From: a virus
Taxonomy: Duplodnaviria; Caudoviricetes
DNA length: 64,000 nucleotides
Virus record (IMG/VR): IMGVR_UViG_3300027914_000334
Location: 1 to 64,000 of that record
Direction: 5' to 3' (one strand)
Shown: one piece after another, positions 41,784 to 51,739 of the stretch
Layout of the letters: each line of letters opens with the position of its first letter
Numbering within the stretch: the stretch's first letter is position 1
The notes under the pieces: model-generated
Told to the model about the DNA's origin: nothing
Database searches by the model: none
Seen by the model: the letters and a program-made list of their open reading frames with translations, nothing else
Position numbers and translations under genes: made by a program

Positions 41784-42818
41784 TTATTTCGAAAAAAAAT
41801 TTCTATAAAACATAACAGATTCATTAATAGTATCAGCTATGTTCTTATTTGAAAATCTGTTATTTTTAACGATTTCGATTATACTAGAACTTTTAAAATT
41901 ACTCAATGGTATTACAGGAATTCCTAATTCTTCAGCAGCAATACCTCTAGTATCTACTCTAATTAATACAGTTCTGCCACCAATACCGTGAATTGGTAAT
42001 GCAGTGTGTAGTCTAGTCGAAATACATATATCAACATGACTATAAAATTCAATCATTTCTTTGGAATTATTAAATCGCACACATTCACCAAATGTATTAT
42101 TAGTAAATTCATAGTCGATTATATTTACCTGTGCGAAAAATTTACATGGCTTACCAGTATAATTTTCTATGAATTGTTTGGTTTCTTTTATTTCCGTTAT
42201 TAATTCTTCTTTATCTTCTCTGTTTTTAATATAATCGGCTGTGATATTAATTGCATTATATTGTTTATCTGTATTAAAGATTCCATGTTTCAAACAAGCA
42301 AATGTTCCAGTACATGGAAGTAGCGTTGAATTAACATTATTTGTTTCTAAGTATCTTTGAGCCATCTTGTCTCTAGTTGTAATTAATTTTGTGTTATTAC
42401 AGGCTTTATCCAAAATTATTTCATTGAGAAGTGATTTGTTAAGATGTGCAGCAAATTCATCTGGAGTTATAGACTCAGATGGATAACCACCACCACCGGC
42501 CAATCTTAGAATAGGAACACCTGTATAGTTTAAATAATCCCATATTTCATTATCGTAGAAAAATCTCCACTCTTCAAAATTGTTATATTGTGGCATACCA
42601 CCATAAATTATAAAATCACACGTTCTCATAATCTCCATCTGTTCTCTAGTGAAAGGTTCCCATCTACTTATAAGCACCCATTCAATAGGTATTGGTTTAA
42701 GTGCTTCTTCAATAATATATTGAAGACCATGACCAATGAAACAATCACCCACATTTGAATTGTTATAGCTTTCTTGATTTGTCTCATCAATAATCCTTGT
42801 CAGCAATGCTATTTTCAT
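41784..42818 (-). CDS. polysaccharide pyruvyl transferase-like protein
   Basis: NVGD, YGG, TTRD, ISTRLH..LP, D.R motifs. Confidence 0.75.
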   Translation of the reverse strand: MKIALLTRIIDETNQESYNNSNVGDCFIGHGLQYIIEEALKPIPIEWVLISRWEPFTREQMEIMRTCDFIIYGGMPQYNNFEEWRFFYDNEIWDYLNYTGVPILRLAGGGGYPSESITPDEFAAHLNKSLLNEIILDKACNNTKLITTRDKMAQRYLETNNVNSTLLPCTGTFACLKHGIFNTDKQYNAINITADYIKNREDKEELITEIKETKQFIENYTGKPCKFFAQVNIIDYEFTNNTFGECVRFNNSKEMIEFYSHVDICISTRLHTALPIHGIGGRTVLIRVDTRGIAAEELGIPVIPLSNFKSSSIIEIVKNNRFSNKNIADTINESVMFYRNFFSK

Positions 42819-43105
42819 TTTTTTATTCCCTTCACATAATCGTCAAAGTCTTTCAGTATGCTCTCTAGTGTCTCTTCATTGCTTGGCTCATTATTGGTAA
42901 GAGTTGTTGGTAATAATGAATCGTCTTGAAATTTCATATTCACATGACAATTATATACTAACTGTCCTACGGCGTCAGCTAAGTCCTTACTATTATGAAC
43001 ATATGGACCATCACTTAATTTAAAATTATTAAATTTTTCAACTTCTATATCATAAACAGGTACAGCTATTTTTAATTGAATCCTAGTTGTTTTCTTTATT
43101 TTCAT
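42815..43105 (-). CDS. terL: terminase C-fragment: 38-aa C-intein + C-extein
   Basis: MKIKK...VYDIEV...NF...VHN|SKDLADAV; intein blocks F/G followed by terminase nuclease KD.ADA motif. Confidence 0.9.
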   Translation of the reverse strand: MKIKKTTRIQLKIAVPVYDIEVEKFNNFKLSDGPYVHNSKDLADAVGQLVYNCHVNMKFQDDSLLPTTLTNNEPSNEETLESILKDFDDYVKGIKK

Positions 43106-43787
43106 TTGATTTCATCCATTCTTCTAAAAAATTTATAGCGTCCTGTTCTGTTAAAAACCATCCTAAATGTTTTTTATATTTTACAACTCTCCACTTTTCT
43201 TTTGCTTTACGGCAATGAGAGTATGATACTCCTGTAACTTTTGAAGTTCTATTGCATTTATTATGTGGTTGGCTTTTAATAACTCCAGAATAATCTATAA
43301 CATCTGGATAATTTAATATGGCAAATTCTCCACGCTTTTCTCTAGCTTCCTTATCATATGCTAGGGCTGCAATATTTGCTGTCTTATAATATCCAATCGA
43401 TTTACCATCTATGGACGCTTTATAACAATTTTGACTTTCCTTTGTAACACCAATAAACCCACATTCGTTTGGAGTTCTAATGGAATTCCACGCATTACCT
43501 TTGTAATCTGTCAATCTTAAATTTTCTTTTCGATTATCAAGGCGATTATGATTCTTATGGTCTATAACTACACCATCTCCAATTTCCAAATTAAACACAT
43601 ATCTATGAGCAATTATATTTTTTTGAACAATATTATTTTTTGAATGGCTTCCAGATATATGTTTTACAGTAATGGCATAGCCATCATGATAGTACCACTT
43701 ATGTTGTATAAATTTCTCATAATCCTCATCATCTACTAACATTACTTTTCCACAGCCACTATTACCGTTAAGTTTAATTTCTTTCAT
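43083..43787 (-). CDS. HNH-AP2 homing endonuclease
   Basis: LVDDED, AHR, IDHKNHNRLDNRKENLR; AP2-like GFIGV...AALAYD...GEFAILN; second AP2-like repeat. Confidence 0.92.
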   Translation of the reverse strand: MKEIKLNGNSGCGKVMLVDDEDYEKFIQHKWYYHDGYAITVKHISGSHSKNNIVQKNIIAHRYVFNLEIGDGVVIDHKNHNRLDNRKENLRLTDYKGNAWNSIRTPNECGFIGVTKESQNCYKASIDGKSIGYYKTANIAALAYDKEAREKRGEFAILNYPDVIDYSGVIKSQPHNKCNRTSKVTGVSYSHCRKAKEKWRVVKYKKHLGWFLTEQDAINFLEEWMKSNENKENN

Positions 43788-43825
43788 ATTTCCCTCCATA
43801 TGATCTTTAGTATATAACAGTATGG

Positions 43826-45889
43826 TCAGTCTTGTAAATCATCATTATCGTTAAGTTCATCAGCTCGTTTATAAATACCACTTTTTAATAAAAATCTATG
43901 ATCTGGAGTGCATCTTATCTTTTTACCATTTTCAAATTCCAATTCTATTAATTCATCAACATATTTTGTCAATTTCCAATCTTTAACTTGAGATATGGTT
44001 TCGTTTTTATTATTAATATCATAACATTTGCACATTTTACCCACCAATTTGTCTTTATCGTCTATTCGGACTAATGATCCATCTGCCAATTCTATTTCAG
44101 TATCTCCAATGAAACAACCCTTCACCGGATGGTCTATCTTATCATTAACATAATTTCTTTCTAGTCTATTAAGCTCATCTTCCAATACTGGATGATATAT
44201 GCATTTAACTCTATTTTCATACAATGCTGTTCTAAATGTCTCATATGGTTCTGTTGTTTTATCCATAGATATATAATCGAAATTAACTCCGTTTCTTCGC
44301 AAAATTTGTTGCATATCTGCCGACTGGAATCCGTCAGCAGAACCATACTTGATCTTATATCCAAGCTTTTTGAGCTTGAATATCAAGAAACGTAGCCTAG
44401 ACAATTCTACTTCTCCAAACTCTGCCTCTGGATAAACCTGTAATAACATTTCAACTTTTACTATAGGTAATCTTGCTTTTACCACTTGCATTTGCTGTAT
44501 TTCATCATTAAAAAATTCTCGCTCAATAGATACCAAGTCTTCGATATATCCCATAGCAAAACCAAGCTTATCTTTTTTAAGACCAATATCCATGGCGATA
44601 TATCGAATCTTATCTCTATTATCTGGCTTGAATTTAACGATCTTCTCTATACATTCATACTGTGGTTTTGGAGACAGGGTAGCCTTATCAACTGAGAATA
44701 CTCGTTCGATAGATTCATCGAACATCTCTTGAATCTTTTCTTTCTGACCAACAAAAGGCTGGACAGAGTAAACGGCAACACCGGCTATATCTCTAAGAGC
44801 ATTGTCTATGTCCTTCTTGAACTTGTCATAAAAGTCAACAGGAATAGAGATAACATCACCAACAACATCGGTTTCGTTACCATCGAGAATTCGACTTTTT
44901 CTGTTAAGACCACCGACCTCAACCTTGAACTCTTCCTTAGAATACCTATCTCTATTAACTTTCCAAAGGTTATAATCTAAGACATAGGTTGTCTTATCTT
45001 CGGCTTCCTTTGCTAACTTAATGCGTTGTTCTGTGAAGTCATTTGGATACACACGAGAAGAACCGACATATAGAATACCGGGCTTTCTTCCTGCTTTTAA
45101 GAAGCGTGATTCCTGTCTTCTAAGTAGCGAGTTGTAGAGAACAAGAGCCTCATCATACATACCATCTGGGTTGTTTCCGCGTTTTGAATTCTCTACTACC
45201 TTGAAGAAGTTGGCTTCGTCCAGTGCGGCTGAGAATATATTCAAACCAATAGCTGATGACTGTGAAGATGATCCATTGAAGAATTCTATATTGCTTGGAA
45301 ATTGCAAAGATTCGCTTGCTCTTTTATCATCGAAGTAAAAATTCTCTTTAAAGTAGTCGATAGCCTTAACCATTTCCTTAACAGCACCGAAGATATTTTT
45401 CTTCGATTGTTTCTCTGTAATAGATATTACCATGATACCTATCTTGGATACTTGCGACAATCCGAAGTATCTTTGTGGGTTCTTGAAACATGACAGTAAA
45501 TACAGATGCCATAACAATCCAAGTTCCATGAAGAATGATTTTCCAAATCCAATACCACCAGTAGCAACAACTTCTCTATATACTGCGTTTATATCATGTA
45601 CCTTACAGAACTCATCTTTAAGAACCGGATACATGGTTTCAGCAACACCAGTTCCTGTTTTGGGGTTTCTTCCACAATAATAGCCATCTTCTAGGAATAC
45701 TCTAGGAGTGACAGGTTCATGTTTAAAAGGATACATATCTTCTATAACGTCTGAAAACAAATCCTCAATCACCAAATTTAATATTTCTGTATTATTTTGA
45801 TGTTTCTCGACAATATGACGGGTTTCTGGCTTTGCCATTAACATTTTATTGATAGCAGATTTTATCTGGTCTTTATTAAAAAATTGCAT
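43826..45889 (-). CDS. terL: terminase large subunit N-fragment + 96-aa N-intein (43829-44116)
   Basis: GGIGFGKS Walker A, ALDEANF Walker B, AMDIG, DGFQS, IDHP; then CFIGDT...CTPDHRF (intein blocks A and B). Confidence 0.92.
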   Translation of the reverse strand: MQFFNKDQIKSAINKMLMAKPETRHIVEKHQNNTEILNLVIEDLFSDVIEDMYPFKHEPVTPRVFLEDGYYCGRNPKTGTGVAETMYPVLKDEFCKVHDINAVYREVVATGGIGFGKSFFMELGLLWHLYLLSCFKNPQRYFGLSQVSKIGIMVISITEKQSKKNIFGAVKEMVKAIDYFKENFYFDDKRASESLQFPSNIEFFNGSSSQSSAIGLNIFSAALDEANFFKVVENSKRGNNPDGMYDEALVLYNSLLRRQESRFLKAGRKPGILYVGSSRVYPNDFTEQRIKLAKEAEDKTTYVLDYNLWKVNRDRYSKEEFKVEVGGLNRKSRILDGNETDVVGDVISIPVDFYDKFKKDIDNALRDIAGVAVYSVQPFVGQKEKIQEMFDESIERVFSVDKATLSPKPQYECIEKIVKFKPDNRDKIRYIAMDIGLKKDKLGFAMGYIEDLVSIEREFFNDEIQQMQVVKARLPIVKVEMLLQVYPEAEFGEVELSRLRFLIFKLKKLGYKIKYGSADGFQSADMQQILRRNGVNFDYISMDKTTEPYETFRTALYENRVKCIYHPVLEDELNRLERNYVNDKIDHPVKGCFIGDTEIELADGSLVRIDDKDKLVGKMCKCYDINNKNETISQVKDWKLTKYVDELIELEFENGKKIRCTPDHRFLLKSGIYKRADELNDNDDLQD

Positions 45890-47416: not shown

Positions 47417-47949
47417 TGAATTATCATTTATTTGATAATATATTGAATAACATAACAAACGAAGCTATCCGCAAGTTTACAATCAACGTTCTTGATGCCT
47501 GTGATCCAATCCTAGAAAAGATTCCAGCGTCTACATCTGGTAAGTATCATCCAGAAGAATGTTGTAGAGAAGGTGGGCTTGTGATTCATATTTTACGAGC
47601 TTGCTTCTTCGGTAATATGTTAATAAATTCTATGAATTTAGATAAGAATGACATAAAAGGAGATATAATTCTTTCTTCATTGCTTCTTCACGATATTGCA
47701 AAGAAGGAAAAATATAAAAACTATCAAGAATACGATTTTCATCCAGTTAATGCGGCTAGACACGTTGAAGTTTTCAAAGGTAATTTAAACGAAACGTATT
47801 TTAAATTGATACAGGAATGTATTAAGCATCATATGGGTCCATTCATGGGAAATACATACAAGAAATCACTATCCAAATATAATATTTTGGAATTGATTGT
47901 TTATCAGTCAGACTACCTAGCTTCAAAGAAGGAAATAGATATTAAATGA
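47416..47949 (+). CDS. HD-domain phosphohydrolase
   Basis: PASTSGKYH, GGLVIH, LLHDIAK, HP, HHMG, SDYLAS. Confidence 0.85.
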   Translation: MNYHLFDNILNNITNEAIRKFTINVLDACDPILEKIPASTSGKYHPEECCREGGLVIHILRACFFGNMLINSMNLDKNDIKGDIILSSLLLHDIAKKEKYKNYQEYDFHPVNAARHVEVFKGNLNETYFKLIQECIKHHMGPFMGNTYKKSLSKYNILELIVYQSDYLASKKEIDIK

Positions 47950-48719
47950 AATATATAGATATCCCAAATAAAAATATTAAGAATGTAATATATATGGTAA
48001 CAAATATCATAAATGGGAAGTCATATATAGGTCAAACAATATATTTGCTTAGAAAGAGAATGACTAAACATAAGTCCGGTAATAATACATATCCATTGGG
48101 AATGGCTATTAGGAAGTATGGTTGTGAAAACTTCGAAGTAAGAATCCTACACAAATGTTCATCTTTAGATGAACTAAATAGGTTAGAAGTAGAAGAAATT
48201 AAAAACAGAAATACGTTAATACCAAATGGGTATAATATAGAAATTGGAGGAAATAATAAATGTTCAAACGAGGAAAGTATTAAAAAGATAAAAAATTGGT
48301 ACAAAAATAACAAAAGAAAATTCTCTGATATAATTAATAGTAAAGAAAACCGAGATAAAGTTTCAACAAATACGAAAATTGGGATATATAAAAAAGTTGG
48401 GGAGATTGAACGACGACGTAGTTTAATGTTTGAGAGAAATAAAAATGATTTTGACAAAAATTTACTATTGATGACAAAACTAGTGGAATATATTAGATAC
48501 GAAGATGCGTTTATTTTAAATGAACATATGATTAATGACATAGTAAGATTTATAAAAGCCAAGTATTCAATACCTTCTATATGGAAGTCACTCAAAACGA
48601 AAAGATATCTAAGAAATATCTATGGAGATTGCACAATGTTATCAATAGGTAATATTAGAGGTATTATAAAACGTCATGATCTATTGGCAACTTCCCAAAA
48701 ATGCATTGAAATCAAGTAA
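47946..48719 (+). CDS. GIY-YIG homing endonuclease
   Basis: VIYMVTNIINGKSYIGQT, R..KH, E...I...NT..PNGYN; very AT-rich. Confidence 0.88.
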   Translation: MKYIDIPNKNIKNVIYMVTNIINGKSYIGQTIYLLRKRMTKHKSGNNTYPLGMAIRKYGCENFEVRILHKCSSLDELNRLEVEEIKNRNTLIPNGYNIEIGGNNKCSNEESIKKIKNWYKNNKRKFSDIINSKENRDKVSTNTKIGIYKKVGEIERRRSLMFERNKNDFDKNLLLMTKLVEYIRYEDAFILNEHMINDIVRFIKAKYSIPSIWKSLKTKRYLRNIYGDCTMLSIGNIRGIIKRHDLLATSQKCIEIK

Positions 48720-48805
48720 GAACTATCGTAGAATCTATACAGTAACGGCGAATGGAGTATTTAAAATTTTACTCCATTCGCCTATTTATACTACCGGAGA
48801 AGGAT

Positions 48806-51739
48806 ATGTTCACAAAACTTTCACAAGAGCAAATTAATTCTAAGAAAGATTTTATTCGTCATTTTATTGGAAGTAAAAATGCGGCAGATGGAAGCACAGT
48901 CGATGCCAATGCTAACGTTACAACCAAGAACATAGCTAATCTACATGGAGAAATCCATAAAGATATCAATATTCAATTAAACAGAGCTATGAATTACGAT
49001 AAGATTAAGGAACTGTTTGGTGAACATTTAGCAAAAGAATACTTACGGCAGATAAATAGCCATGAAATCTACGTTCATGATGAGTCTAATATAAACCTCC
49101 CGTATTGTGTTGCATTATCTTTGCATCCTTTCATTACAAATGGATTAAAACAGCTTGGGGGAGAATCAAAGGCTCCTAAACATATTTCTAGTTTCTGTGG
49201 TGGATTTGTAAACCTTTTGCTTGCTGTAAGTGGACAATTCGCCGGAGCATGTGCAACCACCGAATTTTTTATTTATATGGATTATTTTGCCAGAAAAGAT
49301 TACGGAGAAAATTACCTTGAGACACATAAAGCGGAAATAACTCAGCATTTACAGCATGTAGTATATGTAATCAACCAACCAGCGGTAGCTAGGAATAGTC
49401 AATCTGTATTCTGGAATGTTTCTATCCTCGATAAGTATTTCATGAAAGGTTTATTTGAACATTTCAGATATCCAGATAATTCCGAATTGAATTACGAAAG
49501 CGTTGATAAGTTACAATTCTTCTTCTTAAATTGGTTTAATAAAGAACGAGAGAGAACTGTTCTTACGTTTCCTGTTGTTTCTGTTTCTATGTTAAGTGAT
49601 ACAAAAACAAATACTCCTAAAGATTATGAATTCGCTAATAAGATAGCCGAAGAAATGGAAAGGAAGAATAGCTTCTTTATATATCATAGTAATAGCGTTG
49701 ATTCGTTAAGTTCTTGTTGCTTTACAGGAGATCAAAAGACGCTTACAAAATCTTCTAATGGTGTAAATTATATGTCATTCGAAGAACTTGAAAGGTCTAA
49801 ATATAATGACACAAAACGCAATTTTACTATATTTCATAACGGATCATGGTGCAAAGGAAATATTGTAAAAATTCAATATGGTGGAAAAATTACAGAGGTT
49901 GTTACTGTTAATAACAAAGTAATAAAAGTTACAGAAGATCATATTCATGCTACGTTAGATGGCGACAAAAAAACTTCCGAATTGACAGAAAACGACTATC
50001 TATTATTTTCAAAATTGGAACTCAATACATTCCCAGAAAAAGACCTCAATCTTAAGGAATATCACGGTATGCTTATAGGAGCATATCTTGGTGATGGAAG
50101 CTGTTATGTAAATGAAGCACTTTCAGAAGACGCAGAAACAAAATATGCTGTTAATCTTTCTATTAACGAAGATAAATACAAAAAACTTATTGTTGCTTTA
50201 AGAATGGTATGTAAGTCTATACATGGAAGTTATGACTGCTTAAAATTACATAAGTCATATAATAATGTATATCCTGTTGTTATTTATTCTAAGAAAATAT
50301 ATGACTTTATCAAATATTGGGTTGGTGGCAATTATGCCGTAAGCAAACAGTTAAATCTTGAATGTTTATTACAATCATCTGATTTTAGAAAAGGTATTTA
50401 CAAAGGTTATTATATTACTGATGGTGGTAATTCAAATCGAATATATACCACATCAGAAGCCCTCTGTATGCAAATGGAAGTATTGTTCACAAGTCTTGGT
50501 ATGCCAACCATCATTGATGTTTCTGATAGGACAGACGAACCAGTTATAATCAGAGGTCAACATTTTAACAGGAATCATAAATTATACTGTATTAGATGGT
50601 ATGCTTCTAACAACAAGCGTTCTATGCAAGATGTATATGTTGTTAGAAACAACAATGTTTACTTTAAGATTAAAAGTCTCAAAGAAGTTAAATATGATGA
50701 AATGTTCGTTTATTGTTTCCAAATGGCCGATCAATCTGAACCATACTTTACACTTCCAAATGGAATCATAACGCACAACTGTAGACTTCGCAACGCTATC
50801 CAGTCTAATGAATTCTCCTATACACTTGGGAATATAGGTATTATGACTGGTTCTATTCATGTAATAACTCTAAATATGAATAGGTTGATTCAGAAATATC
50901 ATAGGAAGTGGATGTATGAAGAAAGAGTTGGAAAACATAGTGAAATGACAGACTTCATAGCTAACAACATACGAGAAGAAATACAAACCATTCACAAATA
51001 TCATGTGGCATTTAGACAGATATTAAAAGATTACCAGTCAGCAGGACTATTACCCGTATATGATGCTGGCTTTATCACTCTGGATAAACAATATTCGACT
51101 ATAGGTATTAATGGACTTGTAGAAGGTTGTGAGTATCTTGGTTTTGAAATCTCTAACAACCCAGATTATATTAGATTTGTCTCTTCTCTTCTCAAAGTAA
51201 TAAGTGATGAAAATAAAAAGGCCAAAGAATCCTATAAGTGTATGTTTAATACTGAATTTGTTCCAGCCGAAAATCTCGGTGTTAAAAATGCCAAATGGGA
51301 CAAAGAAGATGACTATAAAGTAACAAGAGATTGTTACAATTCATATTTTTATATTGTTGAAAATGAGTCTGTAAATGTTATAGATAAATTCATACTTCAT
51401 GGAGATCAAATAACAAAATATCTTGATGGTGGGTCTGCTTTGCATCTTAATCTCCAAGAACATCTGACCAAAGAACAATATTTACATCTCATGAACATAG
51501 CAATAAAAACTGGATGTAGTTATTGGACAATTAATGTTCTAGCTACTTGTTGTGAAGAGTGTGAACATATCGACAAGGATACTCTACTTAAATGTTCTAA
51601 GTGTGGGAGTAGTAATATTACATATGCCACCAGAATTATTGGGTATCTTAAAAAGATATCCTCATTCTCGACACCAAGACAAATTGAAACGTCAAAGCGT
51701 TACAGACATGGAGCAATAACCAATGACATTCGAAGATGA
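48806..51739 (+). CDS. nrdD: anaerobic (class III) ribonucleotide reductase, intein-containing
   Basis: IYVHD, PYC, TFPV, SSC|CRL, PAENL, CEEC...CSKC, TRIIGYL glycyl-radical loop. Confidence 0.95.
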   Translation: MFTKLSQEQINSKKDFIRHFIGSKNAADGSTVDANANVTTKNIANLHGEIHKDINIQLNRAMNYDKIKELFGEHLAKEYLRQINSHEIYVHDESNINLPYCVALSLHPFITNGLKQLGGESKAPKHISSFCGGFVNLLLAVSGQFAGACATTEFFIYMDYFARKDYGENYLETHKAEITQHLQHVVYVINQPAVARNSQSVFWNVSILDKYFMKGLFEHFRYPDNSELNYESVDKLQFFFLNWFNKERERTVLTFPVVSVSMLSDTKTNTPKDYEFANKIAEEMERKNSFFIYHSNSVDSLSSCCFTGDQKTLTKSSNGVNYMSFEELERSKYNDTKRNFTIFHNGSWCKGNIVKIQYGGKITEVVTVNNKVIKVTEDHIHATLDGDKKTSELTENDYLLFSKLELNTFPEKDLNLKEYHGMLIGAYLGDGSCYVNEALSEDAETKYAVNLSINEDKYKKLIVALRMVCKSIHGSYDCLKLHKSYNNVYPVVIYSKKIYDFIKYWVGGNYAVSKQLNLECLLQSSDFRKGIYKGYYITDGGNSNRIYTTSEALCMQMEVLFTSLGMPTIIDVSDRTDEPVIIRGQHFNRNHKLYCIRWYASNNKRSMQDVYVVRNNNVYFKIKSLKEVKYDEMFVYCFQMADQSEPYFTLPNGIITHNCRLRNAIQSNEFSYTLGNIGIMTGSIHVITLNMNRLIQKYHRKWMYEERVGKHSEMTDFIANNIREEIQTIHKYHVAFRQILKDYQSAGLLPVYDAGFITLDKQYSTIGINGLVEGCEYLGFEISNNPDYIRFVSSLLKVISDENKKAKESYKCMFNTEFVPAENLGVKNAKWDKEDDYKVTRDCYNSYFYIVENESVNVIDKFILHGDQITKYLDGGSALHLNLQEHLTKEQYLHLMNIAIKTGCSYWTINVLATCCEECEHIDKDTLLKCSKCGSSNITYATRIIGYLKKISSFSTPRQIETSKRYRHGAITNDIRR
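49718..50779 (+). mobile_element. 354-aa intein with LAGLIDADG endonuclease in nrdD
   Basis: CFTGDQ start, VTEDH block B, LIGAYLGDG and GYYITDG, ends ITHN before Cys. Confidence 0.93.

Follow-up and report, generated by a model that had tools for sequence, protein, structure and literature searches.

The 64,000-nucleotide (nt) stretch analysed here, which we call the window, covers positions 1 to 64,000 of the Caudoviricetes record IMGVR_UViG_3300027914_000334, a metagenomic sequence of 106.7 kb from an uncultured phage with an estimated completeness of 86%. Its gene for the terminase large subunit (TerL) is most probably a working fractured gene: a class 1 intein at the site DHPxxG/SKDxxDA (slashes mark splice junctions throughout) is present in two pieces, with a gene for an HNH-AP2 endonuclease between them. 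We assign this reading a probability of about 0.87. Purifying selection maintains the arrangement, and relatives retain it even where the endonuclease gene has decayed or been lost. An earlier note on this DNA had described terL as fractured over three open reading frames (ORFs), and the ORF list agrees with that description in every detail.

The three ORFs lie head to tail on the minus strand (45889..43826, 43787..43083 and 43105..42815), with the TerL halves and their intein parts in order on one strand and the endonuclease ORF between them, as in the fractured-gene layout. The first ORF (45889..43826, minus strand; 687 amino acids, aa) contains the TerL N-extein of 591 codons (44117..45889, minus strand), which carries the Walker A motif GGIGFGKS, the Walker B motif LDEANFF and most of the nuclease domain, and which ends with ...NDKIDHPVKG. 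It continues directly into the N-terminal intein half (IntN; 96 codons plus a TGA stop, 43826..44116, minus strand) with Cys1 (CFIGDT), block B CTPDH and an acidic tail (...ELNDNDDLQD), so that the whole reads ...KIDHPVKG/CFIGDT...CTPDH...NDNDDLQD up to the stop. A spacer of 38 nt follows (43788..43825, minus strand), with a GGAGG Shine-Dalgarno sequence 5 nt before the ATG of the free-standing, putative HNH-AP2 homing-endonuclease gene at 43787 (43083..43787, minus strand; 234 aa; alternative in-frame ATG at 43799). The third ORF (43105..42815, minus strand; 96 aa) reads MKIKKTTRIQLK...VYDIEV...YVHN/SKDLADAV. Its first 38 codons (42992..43105, minus strand) form the C-terminal intein half (IntC), with MKIKKTTRIQLK as a basic head, block F VYDIEV..NF and block G YVHN. 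The remaining 58 codons plus stop form the C-extein (42815..42991, minus strand), which begins with Ser+1 (SKDLADAVGQLVYN...). The IntC start codon lies within the HNH ORF, with which IntC overlaps by 23 nt in a different frame.

A promoter and terminator scan revealed no terminator between the three ORFs and performed at chance level overall (a sigma-70-like 10/12 match at 43838-43809 did not exceed shuffled sequence). RNA folds at both internal starts are unremarkable, with z-scores of -0.9 and +1.4. A Megablast search with the region found nothing in 50,697 phage records.

The terminase and its split intein

Annotated terminase large subunits of Vibrio siphophages are about 34% identical to the long ORF (tblastn, E 2e-73 to 4e-78), which also matches the terminase large subunit family phrog_2, in line with the identity first proposed for it; a T4-type portal gene lies downstream. 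A TerL profile made from 35 intein-less members aligns its positions 1-584 to 44117-45889 and its positions 583-634 to 42830-42997, so the two terminase pieces abut exactly, which goes well beyond a chance match. When the exteins are joined (...NDKIDHPVKG/SKDLADAVGQLVYN...), the junction DHPVKG/SKDLADAV aligns without gaps to TerL of Vibrio phages PJ32 and KarBoss (...DHPPGF SKDVSDAV...) and to the intein-less relative P0003, which is 84% identical (...DHPVKF SKDVADAV...). The claim that splicing restores DHPVKG-SKDLADA therefore holds at the level of the aligned product. Within the intein-less TerL family, D569, H570, D577 and D580 (P0003 numbering) bracket the junction and are invariant or nearly so, and S39, K40, D41, D44 and A45 are invariant across all 16 aligned C-halves. 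We take D569, H570, D577 and D580 to fit the C-terminal acidic motif of RNase H-like terminase nucleases. Searches of the PDB sequences with P0003 and with the 35-member profile matched no terminase.

A second intein site occurs elsewhere in TerL, in the P-loop (LTG/C...VHN/SIGYGKS), where the close relatives P0006, P0009, P0011, P0013 and P0016 carry LAGLIDADG inteins; in the window phage this site is empty (ATGGIGFGKS).

The intein itself is class 1 (of the HINT type) and canonically split as 96/38, with a splicing activity that is predicted from its motifs. Pfam Intein_splicing (PF14890) matches IntN with 38 bits against a curated cut-off of 35.8, and a read-through search gives the same family over 42992-44044 with 57 bits. 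Among solved inteins, IntN comes closest to NrdJ-1, which is naturally split (8ubs, E 4e-7), and a profile of the C-halves matches the 36-aa IntC chains of Npu DnaE (4qfq_B and 4lx3_B) over the same span with E around 1e-3. The net charge is -6 for IntN and +3 for IntC (+5 over the first 12 IntC residues, which start with MKIKK); both lengths and charges are as the earlier note had them, namely a 96-aa IntN with an acidic tail and a 38-aa IntC with a basic head. The set of class 1 splicing residues is complete (Cys1, TPDH, the terminal HN and Ser+1), which supports the proposed Cys1/Ser+1 pair. Cys1 does not vary among the N-halves of seven split relatives, nor do Thr and His of block B; IntN measures 96-101 aa in these relatives, and V17, Y18, D19, I20, N27, V36, H37, N38 and S39 are invariant in the 16 aligned C-halves. 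The break falls where the related inteins P0020 and P0022, and other inteins of 200-455 aa, hold an extra domain (...EDSLMP[domain]NHK..PVYDIEV).

Given this layout, TerL(1-591)-IntN and IntC-TerL(C58) would be translated separately, after which the acidic IntN and the basic head of IntC would associate electrostatically and fold into a HINT domain. A thioester at Cys1 would then be attacked by Ser+1 (transesterification), and cyclisation of Asn38 would complete a peptide bond from Gly591 to Ser+1. The product would be a terminase of 649 aa with an intact nuclease motif, so that DNA packaging would probably require protein trans-splicing. The TerL family profile matches nowhere else in the 106.7-kb record (86% complete), and with this single TerL a dependence of packaging on trans-splicing appears probable.

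It might be argued that no peptide bond is formed, and that the intein halves serve merely as a dimerisation module or that the terminase pieces associate by themselves. Such complementation has precedents, as intein-less fractured phage genes are functional in Aeh1 (nrdA) and in phage 25 (gp43) (PMC2677866). Nonetheless, residues that are needed only for splicing (Cys1, the block B Thr and His, the terminal His-Asn and Ser+1) are strictly conserved over the 16 aligned C-halves, the seven N-halves and 71 free-standing C-halves recovered by motif, which is unexpected if binding sufficed. Moreover, without splicing a bulky HINT domain would remain at the break, 2-3 residues away from K576-D577, an invariant part of the nuclease motif. 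We therefore consider non-covalent complementation improbable and retain the trans-spliced terminase as the better explanation.

The endonuclease gene and selection on the cassette

The middle ORF was described earlier as an HNH-AP2 protein. The HNH part is recognized directly: HNH_3 (PF13392) matches residues 60-92 (E 2.4e-8), phrog_99 (HNH endonuclease) matches with E 9e-30, and H77, N79 and N89 are invariant among 36 homologues. For AP2 the evidence comes from the homologues and from a structural model, since the window protein alone is too diverged for Pfam to call this domain. Many homologues carry PF00847 together with PF13392, and a profile of the 36 sequences matches the plant AP2/ERF structures of WRI1, TEM1, ERF096 and AtERF1 with E-values from 4e-25 to 7e-11 (4e-25 for 7wq5, 7e-11 for 1gcc), as well as the HNH homing endonuclease I-HmuI (1u3e, E 4e-5). 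An AlphaFold2 model based on the alignment of these 36 sequences reached a mean predicted confidence (pLDDT) of 93.5, and its top folds are AP2 domains and I-HmuI (template modelling score 0.70 and root-mean-square deviation 2.2 A for AtERF1). Because homologue domains, profile matches and model folds agree, the label HNH-AP2 is right. The AP2 domain spans approximately residues 104-165, and a beta-sheet with a helix, likewise AP2-like, follows at roughly residues 178-233, so that the protein probably contains two AP2-like modules.

We also considered whether the middle gene could be the broken-off internal endonuclease domain of the same-site inteins P0020 and P0022. This was rejected, as no similarity between them is detectable (E above 2). 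The lack of similarity makes it more likely that an independent, free-standing endonuclease gene invaded a mini-intein, the route laid out in the model of Dassa et al. The HNH-AP2 protein would then cut intein-less terL alleles during co-infection, whereupon repair would copy the IntN-HNH-IntC cassette together with flanking DNA.

Conservation of the locus can be followed in a close relative, the IMG/VR contig 3300028624_000103 (loci L003/L004), in which the N-terminal part of TerL is 92% identical at the aa level and the same three ORFs occur without any indel over 3075 nt. The GGAGG before the HNH start codon is conserved there as well. The ratio of nonsynonymous to synonymous substitution rates (dN/dS) is 0.027 for the N-extein (with a synonymous rate, dS, of 1.53), 0.125 for IntN (dS 0.53), 0.12 for HNH (dS 0.38), 0.05 for IntC (dS 0.62) and 0.025 for the C-extein (dS 0.28). 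Every part, endonuclease included, is thus under purifying selection.

The same comparison reveals a marked change in divergence along the locus: dS drops from 1.53 in the N-extein to 0.28-0.62 over IntN, HNH, IntC and the C-extein. Sliding nt identity gives a similar picture, with a background of about 82% that rises to 88-95% from around 44220 through the cassette, reaches 98-100% over the next gene (41820-42720) and falls back to about 82% in the portal gene. Such a pattern is expected from gene conversion that an endonuclease promotes and that also converts the flanks, and Barth et al. describe a matching divergence pattern (PMC10055350).

The gene next to the cassette belongs to the polysaccharide pyruvyltransferase family (PF04230, E 1.7e-9; 41784-42818, minus strand). 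It lies between the C-terminal part of TerL and the portal gene and overlaps the TerL stop codon (ATGA). In the related phages L005-L007 and L009 the portal directly follows TerL, and the pyruvyltransferase gene is therefore an insertion. It is 98-100% identical at the nt level to the copy in L004, against about 82% in the flanking TerL and portal genes, which suggests a very recent exchange beside the endonuclease cassette.

The same insertion site in other phages

Homologues of the TerL N-half include many intein-less proteins of about 650 aa, contiguous mini-inteins (P0012 and P0021), inteins at the same site with an internal HNH domain (P0020 and P0022) and a second split relative, P0004/P0083, of which P0004 is the split N-half (a related-locus search of IMG/VR with P0004 found nothing). 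A scan of IMG/VR for the pattern VHNSKD[LI][AS] yielded 58 loci, of which about 44 carry a contiguous intein (136-455 aa) and 7 a split one. For the C-halves, a word-indexed search with the 96-aa C-fragment gave 15 clusters of free-standing C-halves, and an exhaustive profile search gave 1618 proteins at E up to 1e-3. Among the 150 best representatives of the latter (clustered at 50% identity), 71 are short free-standing proteins of IntC plus the TerL C-terminus, recovered by the junction motif H[NQ][SCT][KR]D, and in 46 of these IntC is exactly 38 aa.

The space between the split halves varies widely. In L008 the HNH-AP2 gene is 52% identical to that of the window and frameshifted, in L038 a stump of 45 HNH codons is left within a gap of 142 nt, and in L017 the endonuclease gene is absent and the gap measures 62 nt. 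In L011 (with L062; IMGVR_UViG_3300001765_000001, about 30.4-38.3 kb) about 5.7 kb with a dozen small, unrelated ORFs separates the TerL/intein halves, and the record has a guanine-plus-cytosine content of 56-58% and an estimated completeness of 100%; this is a dispersed split terminase and not a compact fractured gene. L039 (1386-2660) has an ORF of 424 aa between its split halves, which encodes a TnsA-like endonuclease (PF08722, E 1.2e-16) with helix-turn-helix-like motifs. Here a gene with a restriction-endonuclease fold occupies the slot of HNH-AP2. Fusions are observed too: in L024, and at the same site in the isolated Streptococcus phage vB_SagM-GXN1 (L067), IntN is fused to an endonuclease-like domain and IntC is found in a separate overlapping ORF.

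The terL gene of vB_SagM-GXN1 (176 kb; PQ819873.1:122577-125538) is apparently present in at least three pieces, none of whose ORFs is annotated in the record. One ORF starts with an IntC that ends in SHN/CALMDE at the Walker B site and ends with an IntN plus a PD-(D/E)xK-like domain at the nuclease site, after which the ORF of IntC plus the TerL C-terminus follows.

A tree built from the splicing domains unites the six HNH-type split inteins in one group (SH-aLRT branch support 84) and places L039 elsewhere. For distant pairs the inteins are 40-45% identical, more than their N-exteins (25-32%), which points to horizontal spread or long retention. The charges differ in one case: the pair of L038 (3024-5303) is charge-swapped, with a net charge of +5 for IntN and -6 for IntC, compared to -3 to -14 for IntN and 0 to +4 for IntC in the other six split pairs. 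The L038 pair could be naturally orthogonal to the others.

The family data also bear on the possibility that the window contains a decaying or dead terminase, for example a contiguous intein broken by a recent endonuclease insertion, or a defective or mis-assembled genome. The sequence is after all an uncultured viral contig that is 86% complete, and endonuclease decay is seen in relatives (the frameshift in L008, the stump in L038). However, all three ORFs are intact in both of two genomes whose background identity is about 82% at the nt level, with dN/dS values of 0.03-0.13 and no indel over 3075 nt. The 96/38 split recurs with TerL exteins that are only 25-32% identical and in at least 71 clusters at 50% identity, an isolated phage (vB_SagM-GXN1) is split at the same site, and no second TerL was found in the record. 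We rate this possibility slightly below non-covalent complementation.

Least credible is the removal of the HNH region from the RNA as a group I or II intron, restoring a contiguous mini-intein: endonuclease-encoding introns do occur in phage structural and packaging genes (PMC10055350, PMC12350094) and IntN and IntC share a reading frame here, but an Rfam scan at E up to 10 gave chance snoRNA-like matches alone and no intron, no unusual RNA fold was found, the 38 nt from the IntN stop to the HNH start and the HNH/IntC overlap leave no room for an intron core, IntC always starts with its own Met-Lys/Arg at the same position, and the gaps of 62 nt, 142 nt or 5.7 kb of unrelated genes in relatives rule out an intron as a general solution. 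Such an RNA intron was the rival scenario named in the earlier note.

Some points nevertheless weigh against a working, trans-spliced terminase. Where the HNH gene has the conserved GGAGG, the IntC start, located within the HNH ORF, has only a weak GGA resembling a Shine-Dalgarno sequence. A further terminase gene could in principle be located in the part of the genome that falls outside the 86%-complete metagenomic record. The position of the junction in the nuclease active site is suggested by motif conservation only, both trans-splicing and endonuclease activity are predictions from sequence, and the drop in dS could stem from ordinary recombination instead of homing.

The same phage has a second intein and another gene of the homing-endonuclease type. 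Its nrdD gene, for an anaerobic ribonucleotide reductase (PF13597, E 1e-94; 48752-51739, plus strand), contains the second intein, which is contiguous, roughly 300 aa long (CFTGDQ ... ITHN/C) and equipped with a LAGLIDADG-like segment. A free-standing gene for a GIY-YIG (SegE-like) endonuclease (47946-48719, plus strand) is located between an HD-domain-like gene and nrdD, close to genes of nucleotide metabolism such as thyX (PF02511, 46775-47416).

Significance and relation to known systems

The layout described here is already known and common in phages, and it establishes no new principle. What makes it valuable is how large and complete a natural series is found at one site, along with a possible use in ligation. 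Nearly every proposed stage of fracturing is displayed at this single position: empty sites, mini-inteins, inteins with an internal endonuclease, split inteins with an intact, frameshifted, truncated or lost endonuclease, and halves that are kilobases apart. The insertion site is therefore a good natural series for testing the model of Dassa et al. With respect to phage biology, the packaging nuclease would be completed only once two separately made proteins meet. With respect to applications, protein ligation relies mainly on natural split inteins, and there is a demand for fast orthogonal pairs; this locus, like its many relatives, provides a canonical Cys1/Ser+1 pair of 96 + 38 aa, which belongs to an essential phage enzyme and is related to NrdJ-1 yet distinct from it and from the atypical TerL inteins in use.

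A wider joint reading can be put forward, though only tentatively, as we regard it as clearly less likely than the fractured terL itself and rather doubtful as a whole. In this reading the 96/38 Cys1/Ser+1 inteins at the TerL site DHPxxG/SKD would make up a very large family of no fewer than 71 clusters at 50% identity, apparently not described before, that has spread among phages with terminases of 25-32% identity and outlives its endonuclease, with charge-swapped pairs such as that of L038 as possible orthogonal tools. In the window phage the cassette would, moreover, form one border of a tract recently exchanged between two lineages, which includes the pyruvyltransferase gene (98-100% against 82%). 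No published description of a canonical TerL split-intein family was found in a literature search that was incomplete.

The closest precedent is the set of fractured genes described by Dassa, London, Stoddard, Schueler-Furman and Pietrokovski in 2009, the source of gp41-1, NrdJ-1 and IMPDH-1 (PMC2677866), and the earlier statement that fractured phage genes of this layout are known is correct. Both there and here an N-part with IntN, a free-standing endonuclease gene and an IntC with the C-part follow each other on the same strand, and the intein is interrupted between blocks N4 and C2, where endonuclease domains are usually inserted. In both cases an acidic IntN is paired with a basic IntC, and the sequences come from phages or metagenomes. 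The present lengths of 96 and 38 aa fall within the reported ranges (88-105 aa for IntN, 33-54 aa for IntC). The endonuclease differs, being GIY-YIG or Vsr-like in the genes of Dassa et al. and HNH-AP2 here, although the same authors predicted that HNH could fracture genes (PMC2677866). Their single terminase locus is unlike the present canonical split, as it has an unusual break and an IntC of 122 aa.

GOS-TerL, AceL-TerL and the consensus Cat-TerL are likewise natural split inteins in phage TerL from metagenomes (PMC11766414). Their IntN measures 25-37 aa and their IntC 104-115 aa, and they use Cys+1 (Ser1/Cys+1 in GOS-TerL), compared to 96/38 and Cys1/Ser+1 in the window (PMC11766414). Membership of this family was therefore rejected, and given the differences in split point and +1 residue the insertion site must differ as well, making the present intein a different allele. 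The comparison with known split inteins that had been proposed thus leaves NrdJ-1 as the best match for IntN and Npu DnaE for IntC, with GOS-TerL and AceL-TerL set apart. As far as can be checked, the pair is indeed "probably uncharacterised": its nearest solved relative is NrdJ-1 (E 4e-7), and the characterised TerL split inteins are atypical and have Cys+1.

Phage MIJ3 has an HNH gene between split-intein halves in an essential gene, with a similar C-junction (...VHN/S), but its host gene is DNA polymerase B and not TerL, AP2 domains were not reported there and no family-wide analysis was made. The protein in the middle of the window cassette resembles the HNH-AP2 endonucleases and I-HmuI in having an HNH motif followed by AP2-type DNA-binding domains; here AP2 is too diverged for Pfam alone, and homing activity is putative.

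In actinobacteriophages TerL hosts inteins more often than any other gene, with mini, full-size and empty alleles side by side, and split forms have been proposed to arise when a free-standing endonuclease gene invades an intein (bioRxiv 10.1101/2025.01.02.630785). Those inteins are single polypeptides, mostly with LAGLIDADG, whereas the present intein is split and accompanied by HNH-AP2. Contiguous inteins of 136-455 aa do occur, at the very same site, in relatives of the window phage.

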